DNA of 64,000 nt from Escherichia coli (GTDB taxonomy: Bacteria; Pseudomonadota; Gammaproteobacteria; Enterobacterales; Enterobacteriaceae), in assembly GCF_003334335.1 (NCBI RefSeq), contig NZ_QOWQ01000001.1; one strand, given 5' to 3'. Made by a program: the position numbers. This document shows, piece after piece, positions 47,001-50,000 of this stretch. The first letter of the stretch is position 1; each line of letters begins with the position of its first letter.

Positions 47001-50000
47001 CGTTGCTGTAGAAGCGGGTATTGCTGACTACTGGTACAAGTATGTTGGCCTGAACGGTGCTATCGTCGGTATGACCACCTTCGGTGAATCTGCTCCGGCA
47101 GAGCTGCTGTTTGAAGAGTTCGGCTTCACTGTTGATAACGTTGTTGCGAAAGCAAAAGAACTGCTGTAATTAGCATTTCGGGTAAAAAGGTCGCTTCGGC
47201 GACCTTTTTTATTACCTTGATATGTCCGTTTGCGGACAAGCAATAGATAAGGCGTGTTGTAGATCACAAATATTTATATGCAATAAATATCAATTATGTA
47301 ATATGCATCACGATATGCGTATTGACATTTGTTGTTATATCTATAACTCAATGTTATATAAGAAATTAATAATTCACTGTTTTCAAAACACCGGTTTCCC
47401 TGCTCAATTGCTTTCATTAAACCGCACGAGTATTTTATTTTTACCGCCGGACGGTACCCTAAAAATAAAATAAGGATAATTTATGCGGCTTAGTGATTAT
47501 TTTCCAGAATCATCAATCTCAGTTATACATTCAGCAAAAGATTGGCAGGAAGCTATCGATTTCTCGATGGTATCATTGCTGGATAAAAACTATATCAGCG
47601 AGAATTACATTCAGGCAATTAAAGATTCCACCATTAACAATGGCCCTTATTATATTCTCGCACCAGGCGTGGCAATGCCTCATGCGCGACCGGAATGTGG
47701 GGCGCTTAAAACCGGGATGTCTTTGACATTACTTGAACAAGGTGTTTATTTTCCGGGGAATGACGAACCAATTAAATTACTCATCGGACTCTCTGCTGCC
47801 GATGCCGATTCGCACATTGGCGCTATTCAGGCGTTAAGTGAATTACTGTGCGAAGAAGAAATACTCGAACAACTCTTAACAGCATCATCAGAAAAACAAT
47901 TAGCGGACATTATCAGCCGCGGATAATTACTCTCTCCTCTACAGGATAATATTATGGAAAACAAGTCTGCTCGTGCAAAGGTCCAGGCTTTTGGGGGCTT
48001 TTTGACTGCAATGGTCATCCCCAATATTGGTGCTTTTATTGCCTGGGGTTTTATTACTGCGTTATTTATTCCCACCGGTTGGCTGCCTAACGAACATTTC
48101 GCCAAAATTGTCGGCCCGATGATTACCTATTTATTGCCCGTGATGATTGGTTCTACAGGTGGTCATCTGGTCGGCGGTAAACGCGGGGCGGTCATGGGCG
48201 GAATAGGTACTATTGGTGTGATCGTTGGCGCAGAGATCCCGATGTTCCTTGGCTCAATGATCATGGGGCCGCTCGGTGGGTTGGTCATAAAATATGTCGA
48301 TAAGGCACTGGAAAAACGCATACCTGCCGGTTTTGAGATGGTTATCAATAACTTCTCATTAGGTATCGCGGGGATGCTCCTTTGTCTGCTGGGTTTTGAA
48401 GTTATCGGCCCGGCGGTGTTAATTGCCAATACTTTCGTCAAAGAGTGTATTGAGGCGCTGGTACATGCGGGTTATCTGCCATTGTTGTCAGTCATCAATG
48501 AACCGGCGAAAGTGCTTTTCCTCAATAATGCGATCGATCAGGGCGTCTATTATCCGCTGGGAATGCAACAGGCTTCGGTTAACGGTAAATCCATCTTCTT
48601 TATGGTGGCCTCTAACCCAGGTCCGGGCCTGGGGCTGCTGCTGGCGTTTACCTTGTTTGGTAAAGGGATGAGTAAACGTTCTGCGCCCGGGGCGATGATT
48701 ATTCACTTCCTCGGTGGGATCCACGAACTGTATTTCCCGTATGTGCTGATGAAGCCGCTGACCATTATTGCCATGATTGCGGGCGGTATGTCTGGCACCT
48801 GGATGTTTAACTTACTGGACGGTGGTCTGGTGGCTGGCCCAAGTCCGGGGTCTATCTTTGCTTACCTGGCACTGACGCCGAAAGGCTCGTTCTTGGCGAC
48901 AATTGCCGGTGTTACGGTAGGTACCCTGGTGTCCTTTGCTATTACTTCGCTGATACTGAAGATGGAAAAAACGGTGGAAACGGAGAGCGAAGATGAGTTT
49001 GCTCAGTCAGCCAATGCGGTTAAGGCGATGAAACAAGAGGGTGCATTCTCGTTAAGCAGGGTTAAGCGTATCGCCTTTGTTTGCGATGCGGGGATGGGCT
49101 CCAGTGCGATGGGCGCGACCACCTTCCGTAAACGCCTGGAAAAAGCGGGGCTGGCAATTGAAGTAAAACATTACGCCATAGAAAACGTGCCTGCGGATGC
49201 GGATATCGTCGTTACTCATGCCAGTCTGGAAGGGCGCGTGAAACGTGTGACGGATAAACCACTGATATTGATTAATAACTATATTGGCGATCCAAAACTC
49301 GACACTTTATTTAATCAATTAACCGCCGAACATAAACACTGATTACAGAGGTAAAAATGAAAACCAAAGTTGCTGCTATTTATGGCAAGCGGGATGTCCG
49401 TCTGCGCGTATTTGAACTGCCAGAAATTACCGATAATGAATTACTGGTGAGTGTAATTTCTGACAGCGTCTGTTTATCGACCTGGAAAGCGGCGTTACTC
49501 GGTAGTGAACATAAACGCGTACCCGACGATTTAGAAAATCATCCGGTCATTACCGGGCATGAATGTGCCGGGGTTATTGTCGAAGTGGGTAAAAATCTCA
49601 CTGGCAAATATAAAAAAGGCCAGCGTTTTGTATTGCAACCGGCGATGGGGTTACCAAGCGGATATTCAGCGGGCTACAGCTACGAATATTTTGGCGGCAA
49701 TGCCACTTATATGATTATTCCCGAAATCGCCATTAATTTGGGCTGCGTATTACCGTATCACGGCTCTTATTTTGCTGCGGCGTCGCTGGCAGAGCCTATG
49801 TGCTGCATTATTGGTGCTTATCATGCCAATTATCACACCACGCAATATGTTTATGAGCATCGCATGGGCGTCAAACCTGGCGGCAATATTGCACTGCTGG
49901 CGTGTGCAGGTCCGATGGGCATTGGCGCTATCGATTACGCCATTAACGGCGGCATACAACCGTCGCGGGTGGTGGTGGTCGATATCGACGACAAACGTCT

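Follow-up and report, generated by a model that had tools for sequence, protein, structure and literature searches.

Is the AT-rich DNA upstream of the cmtBA mannitol phosphotransferase system (PTS) operon of Escherichia coli an H-NS-silenced promoter, and does such silencing explain why the operon is called cryptic? We addressed this question in a 64,000-nt stretch of an E. coli genome (GCF_003334335.1, contig NZ_QOWQ01000001.1), hereafter the window, in which an initial annotation had proposed H-NS silencing for a 270-bp region at 47213-47482. Our analysis makes it likely that the 313-bp tktA-cmtB spacer containing this region is an ancient control region of the cmtBA-yggPF... operon that is silenced by H-NS/StpA and activated by CRP. 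Published experiments demonstrate that H-NS/StpA silence the operon, that CRP binds the first of two CRP boxes, and that the promoter depends on CRP, is repressed by glucose and is induced by nucleosides.

From 16364 to 64000 the window matches the MG1655 genome in reverse complement with 99.98% identity. In the K-12 annotation tktA lies at 45178-47169, cmtB at 47483-47926 and cmtA at 47954-49342, all on the + strand, with yggP, yggF, fumE(yggD) and yggC following 3′ of cmtA; alignment and annotation together confirm the identities of tktA, cmtB and cmtBA that had been assigned initially. The spacer occupies 47170-47482 (NC_000913.3 3,079,331-3,079,643) and is empty in the K-12 annotation. The putative silencing platform and the genes under its control are as follows.

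47170-47700, no strand assigned: AT-rich tract made of the spacer and the 5′ half of cmtB, the presumed H-NS/StpA binding platform (GC 0.363; operon-level H-NS data).
47483-49342, + strand: cmtB and cmtA, the controlled genes (open reading frames (ORFs), annotation, published expression).

H-NS is well known to be attracted to AT-rich DNA. The GC content of the 270-bp region was 0.315 and that of the whole spacer 0.329, compared with 0.503 for the window, and just 0.34% of all 270-bp windows were as AT-rich, so the description of this region as strongly AT-rich was borne out. Among 30 intergenic regions the spacer had the second lowest GC content, and the lowest of those longer than 100 bp. 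TpA steps occurred 11.5 times per 100 bp in the AT-rich region and 4.6 times overall, a 2.5-fold excess over the window average. The low GC content continued into cmtB (0.423), and the spacer together with the 5′ half of cmtB formed 531 bp at GC 0.363. The genes flanking cmtB had values of 0.50-0.56.

Published occupancy and expression data support the proposal that this is an H-NS-silenced promoter. In a chromatin immunoprecipitation sequencing (ChIP-seq) study of H-NS in K-12, SE11 and SE15 (Higashi et al. 2016, PMC4720273), yggD, epd, pgk and fbaA are listed as members of H-NS-bound transcriptional units, the unit in question being cmtBA-yggPFDC (PMC4720273 S2 Table); a unit was counted as bound when H-NS lay on its promoter, intergenic or coding regions. 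A 2025 Micro-C and RNA-seq study of MG1655 compared the wild type with Δhns, ΔstpA and ΔhnsΔstpA mutants and with netropsin treatment (PMC12460168 Suppl. Table 1). Its counts for cmtB were 2-5 in the wild type, 9-14 in Δhns, 131-217 in ΔhnsΔstpA and 49-76 with netropsin, with log2 fold changes of 1.84 (adjusted P = 0.004) in Δhns, 0.88 (not significant) in ΔstpA, 5.92 (adjusted P = 2e-51) in ΔhnsΔstpA and 4.52 with netropsin. The corresponding log2 fold changes in Δhns, ΔstpA, ΔhnsΔstpA and netropsin were 1.45, 0.24, 4.86 and 4.79 for cmtA (wild-type counts 25-34) and 1.69, -0.65, 4.87 and 4.79 for yggP (wild-type counts 42-61). Expressed as fold rises, the three genes increased 2.7-3.6-fold in Δhns, 29-60-fold in ΔhnsΔstpA and 23-28-fold with netropsin. 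All three were also flagged in that study as overlapping a CHIN, an H-NS/StpA-coated chromosomal hairpin tied to repression. The cmt operon is essentially off in lysogeny broth (LB), and its silencing is redundant in that StpA backs up H-NS. The published data show the opposite of an operon free of H-NS and constitutively transcribed, which the initial annotation had named as the outcome contrary to its proposal.

The second part of the answer concerns activation. The spacer contains two CRP boxes.

47253-47268, no strand assigned: CRP site 1, CGTGTTGTAGATCACA, reverse complement TGTGATCTACAACACG (ChIP-seq identity, motif, conservation).
47297-47312, no strand assigned: predicted CRP-like site 2, TGTAATATGCATCACG, with its centre 44 bp downstream of that of site 1 (motif and conservation).

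Each site agreed with the CRP consensus TGTGA-N6-TCACA at 8 of 10 positions (2 mismatches). The number of CRP motifs in the window was not above chance (32 found, 27.8 expected). All 16 aligned sequences had both sites at the corresponding position, site 1 retaining 7-10 and site 2 retaining 6-9 of the 10 consensus positions. A CRP ChIP-seq peak has been reported at cmtB in enterotoxigenic E. coli (ETEC) H10407, with TGTGATCTACAACACG as its site (Haycocks et al. 2015, PMC4287617), and the reverse complement of that site is exactly window 47253-47268. The peak was 16-fold above threshold (PMC4287617 S3 Table) and was the fifth strongest on the ETEC chromosome, after yibI, mtlA, ppiA/tsgA and fdoG. 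Furthermore, cmtB was a CRP target in genomic SELEX (systematic evolution of ligands by exponential enrichment), and the activity of its promoter reporter was lower in a crp mutant (Shimada et al. 2011, PMC3105977). A PcmtA-gfp reporter was controlled by CRP and lowest on glucose, and it rose ~6-fold on uridine and was induced by other nucleosides too; the authors ascribed the uridine effect, which was present at 14 transporters, to CRP (2025 Science Advances, PMC12412646). In the same work, ΔcmtA in a wild-type background had a phenotype in the minimum inhibitory concentration (MIC) of tobramycin.

These observations qualify the idea that H-NS is the reason why cmtBA is cryptic. The silencing stands, but the operon is CRP-activated and uridine-inducible and deletion of cmtA has a phenotype; H-NS therefore explains the "cryptic" label only in part, and the cryptic status of cmtBA is relative. 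Both the silencing and the CRP activation were already contained in published datasets, and our full-text literature search pairing H-NS with cmtA or cmtB found no direct study.

Conservation of the locus bears on the age of the control region. A CmtB scan of species-representative genomes yielded 32 loci. The order tkt, a spacer of 302-347 bp with GC 0.29-0.39, then cmtB-cmtA was found in many Citrobacter, in Salmonella arizonae/diarizonae and in Raoultella, as well as in Silvania, Lelliottia, Superficieibacter, Huaxiibacter and an Enterobacter metagenome-assembled genome. Because synteny, spacer length and AT content are common to many genera, the spacer appears to be old and not of recent horizontal origin; to judge from these comparisons, it is ancient in Enterobacteriaceae and not foreign. 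In the 16-sequence alignment, the distal spacer of K-12 was 43-54% identical to that of other lineages and the proximal 80 bp were 61-81% identical across genera. The distal spacer was AT-rich even where it was not conserved, and thus the composition itself appears to be maintained. Protein identities between E. albertii and the window were 86% for CmtB, 97% for CmtA and 99% for TktA. Enterobacterial tkt-cmtB-cmtA also occurred on contigs named Chryseobacterium sp. (CACSKA010000005.1) and Alkalicoccobacillus porphyridii (NZ_VLXZ01000141.1), the latter with a CmtB 99% identical to that of E. coli; these contigs probably reflect assembly contamination or mislabelling.

The CRP boxes, a proximal -35/-10-like pair and an inverted repeat were kept across ~9 genera. 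In addition to the CRP boxes, the promoter-proximal features are the following.

47322-47327, + strand: distal -35-like hexamer TTGACA, TTG invariant across genera (alignment; putative role).
47408-47436, + strand: proximal promoter-like element, TTGCTT, 17-bp spacer, TATTTT (near-invariant hexamers).
47431-47472, no strand assigned: perfect inverted repeat of 13 nt, TATTTTATTTTTA / TAAAAATAAAATA, its arms separated by 16 GC-richer nt (repeat search, shuffles).

The proximal hexamers, TTG(A/C)TT at 47408-47413 and the near-invariant TATTTT at 47431-47436, kept a gap-free spacing of 17 bp in 12/13 sequences. Hexamer scans detected no good -10 at 15-19 bp downstream of the distal TTGACA (47322-47327). 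A simple sigma-70 scan returned no + strand promoter, and a relaxed hexamer scan returned weak candidates only. The arms of the inverted repeat (47431-47443 and 47460-47472) consisted of A and T only, and a repeat of 13 nt was reached in 0/1000 shuffles. The left arm includes the -10-like TATTTT, and the right arm adjoins the cmtB Shine-Dalgarno sequence. Across 13 sequences the arms remained complementary in 93% of cells; no covariation was detected in these sequences because both arms were nearly invariant. RNAalifold predicted no structure for the conserved proximal block, and the single-sequence fold had z = -1.25. The inverted repeat may act as an operator or, alternatively, as a hairpin in the 5′-UTR.

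Taken together, these elements suggest how the control region could work. H-NS/StpA filaments would nucleate on the ~0.5-kb AT/TpA-rich tract formed by the spacer and 5′ cmtB and would occlude a weak sigma-70 promoter. CRP at both conserved boxes would act either as a direct activator or as an opponent of the silencer, and a specific signal or regulator, possibly acting via the 13-nt inverted repeat, would be needed for full induction.

Several points weigh against this account of a silenced, CRP-activated control region. The evidence for H-NS occupancy is at the level of genes and operons and not at base-pair resolution, and the cmt operon genes were not mentioned in the supplements of the in vivo protein occupancy display at high resolution (IPOD-HR). 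No match to the high-affinity H-NS motif TCGATAAATT with up to 2 mismatches was found within 47170-47482. The effect of the single Δhns mutation was modest, ~3-fold (PMC12460168), and part of the derepression seen in ΔhnsΔstpA or under netropsin might in principle be indirect. As for CRP, distances of ~139 and 183 bp separate the boxes from the downstream start that the proximal promoter-like element implies, and their offsets from the distal TTGACA are non-canonical.

The alternative that survives best, which we nevertheless consider improbable, is that the spacer is AT-rich merely as a dense regulatory region, with the terminator U-tract of tktA, the CRP boxes, the promoter elements and the AT-only inverted repeat supplying its AT content. 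Low expression would then reflect the lack of an inducer or activator, and the effects of ΔhnsΔstpA and netropsin would be indirect results of global deregulation. Conserved functional blocks do cover much of the spacer, and plasmid reporters show an active, CRP-dependent promoter; the small change in the single Δhns mutant and the lack of an H-NS nucleation motif or curvature signal also fit this explanation. However, the transcription unit counts as H-NS-bound in an independent classification derived from ChIP-seq, its genes overlap a CHIN, and CHINs co-localise with H-NS/StpA. The distal spacer is also AT-rich even in its unconserved parts.

A very unlikely alternative is that silencing rests on intrinsic curvature produced by helically phased A/T tracts. 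The initial annotation had implied such phasing and had suggested curvature prediction as a check. The spacer has a weak spectral peak at 10.5 bp, and predicted curvature has a local maximum near 47400 that falls in the top 1.4% of window positions. However, the spacing of its 18 A/T tracts was irregular, and 6% of shuffles equalled the AA/TT spectral power at periods of 10-11.5 bp. The predicted curvature had its peak at 24 degrees; 61% of same-composition shuffles came up to this peak and 23% to the mean, and for the wedge-model profile only such relative comparisons with shuffles are meaningful. Periodicity and curvature were both within the range of composition-matched shuffles, and the claim of phased tracts was unsupported. 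The sequence property relevant to H-NS/StpA silencing is AT-richness itself, not helically phased A-tracts or curvature.

It is just as improbable that the tract is recently acquired foreign DNA and cmtBA a horizontally transferred, xenogeneically silenced operon: cmtB carries a flag for horizontal transfer (PMC12460168 Suppl. Table 1), is low in GC and encodes a protein that diverges faster than its neighbours, but the synteny of tkt, AT-rich spacer, cmtB and cmtA across genera largely refutes this origin, the GC content of cmtA and yggP is normal, and the look of a later insertion is confined to an alternative spacer allele with an SPFH-family gene.

This alternative allele shows that the H-NS/StpA-silenced, CRP-activated control region exists in two forms within E. 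coli.

47171-47404, no strand assigned: biallelic segment, K-12-type in the window; the alternative is ~1.25 kb long and carries an SPFH/prohibitin-family gene (homology breaks, genome counts).

The K-12-type spacer was present in 3556 of 5426 complete E. coli genomes (~66%), and the allele replacing 47171-47404 in 1817-1832 of them (~34%). The alternative (locus L001, 1749-3000) has its own terminator, a 302-aa "prohibitin family" gene on the minus strand and a diverged but colinear AT-rich promoter segment; the 302-aa product is an SPFH protein with weak similarity to HflC/HflK. Homology between the alleles breaks at 47170/47171, one base past the tktA stop, and at 47404/47405, 78 bp before the cmtB ATG. 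The alleles were 51% identical in the distal part and 99% identical in the proximal part, and the alternative retained both CRP boxes. No flanking repeats of the kind left by mobile elements were found at the junctions. Because the terminator hairpin of the K-12 type is common to other genera, the K-12 type appears to be ancestral and the SPFH allele an insertion. E. albertii, E. whittamii and two more Escherichia lineages likewise carry the SPFH allele, which therefore represents an old polymorphism or inter-species recombination. Some strains carried an insertion of the insertion sequence (IS) IS200C in the spacer (locus L005, NZ_CP165737.1, 1758-2216), and one strain with the SPFH allele had two IS1 copies that truncate cmtB (locus L003, NZ_CP182191.1, 4101-5860).

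A more speculative reading, which we think unlikely to hold in full, is that the control region consists of two deeply diverged haplotypes which could make expression of the operon vary between strains, and that the operon is not truly cryptic and is perhaps under the inverted-repeat operator. About half of the bases in the distal promoter differ between the alleles, CRP boxes included. This reading is a joint one that also takes the operon to serve some substrate and the 13-nt repeat to be an operator bound by some regulator.

The spacer is bounded by elements that belong to its flanking genes.

47184-47213, + strand: tktA intrinsic terminator, GGUCGC-UUCG-GCGACC hairpin and U-run (fold and conservation).
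47473-47485, + strand: cmtB ribosome-binding site (AGGA) and the ATG at 47483 (sequence, annotation, conserved across genera).

The terminator is of the Rho-independent type, with a GC-rich hairpin and then a U-run right after the stop codon. It lies within the first 44 bp of the spacer, its fold has an energy of -19.2 kcal/mol (z = -3.7), and the hairpin was kept in Citrobacter, Salmonella, Silvania and Raoultella in the alignment. Its final base is 47213, the start of the region flagged initially. A simple terminator scan missed it at 47184-47213, and an Rfam scan of 46500-48200 gave sub-threshold matches on the terminator region only and no known RNA family. An 83-aa Cys-rich ORF on the + strand (47222-47473) was considered as a gene and rejected, the open frame having no equivalent in 15 related sequences. 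Such a frame is surprising in DNA of 30% GC and is probably a chance ORF.

Elsewhere in the window, the lowest-GC 270-bp stretch (GC 0.289) was in the galP-metK spacer at 38530-38952, which contains a perfect CRP box, TGTGAAGCAAATCACA, at 38593-38608; this box matches the galP CRP ChIP-seq site of the ETEC study. Positions 1-16363 are not K-12 DNA and correspond to a pheV-adjacent island with the sigA autotransporter toxin gene, an integrase, IS66 and traF. At least 80% of this part was present in just 31/5426 E. coli genomes, and strong AT-rich troughs occur inside it at ~6660-8590.

The finding as stated, H-NS silencing upstream of cmtBA, was already documented in genome-wide datasets, and our analysis adds little to it. 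Two modest details are new, the polymorphism of the spacer alleles and the 13-nt inverted repeat. The useful product of the analysis is the anatomy of a poorly studied promoter, with a ChIP-verified CRP site, conserved blocks, an ancient spacer and a second allele. Because recent work links CmtA to the uptake of aminoglycosides and PcmtA serves as a reporter, allele differences in the control region could matter for strain-to-strain variation in the aminoglycoside phenotype.

Compared with known systems, the cmt locus resembles the H-NS/StpA-silenced AT-rich promoters of E. coli, such as bgl and those of the CHIN-associated genes described by Micro-C in 2025. Its AT-rich tract covers both the promoter and 5′ coding sequence, its expression in the wild type is near zero, H-NS and StpA repress it redundantly, and netropsin derepresses it. 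Unlike these promoters, the locus is not recently acquired, synteny and spacer length being conserved, and its spacer is without a curvature or nucleation-motif signature. A nucleation motif and curvature are often cited for H-NS silencing and are not obligatory. A further likeness to bgl is that bgl, too, is a "cryptic" sugar PTS operon and is CRP-dependent. We know of no "decryptifying" activating mutations or IS insertions at cmt.

On the side of activation, cmt resembles CRP-activated transporter promoters of the mtlA type: it has a strong in vivo CRP peak and two CRP boxes, it is repressed by glucose and its activity falls in a crp mutant. The mtlA-yibI control region differs in its GC content (0.425) and in being without the inverted repeat. 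Paralogy between the two control regions was considered and rejected, nothing being shared beyond an 11-mer inside the CRP box. The tandem CRP boxes and the induction of the reporter by uridine and other nucleosides are also reminiscent of the CytR/CRP promoters deoP2, cdd, udp, nupG and tsx. A TGCAA-type left half-site was present in box 2 of 7/16 aligned sequences from 6 genera; box 2 of K-12 has TGTAA. The box spacing of 44 bp is among the differences from CytR/CRP promoters. These features are suggestive, and co-regulation of cmt by CytR is only a lead.

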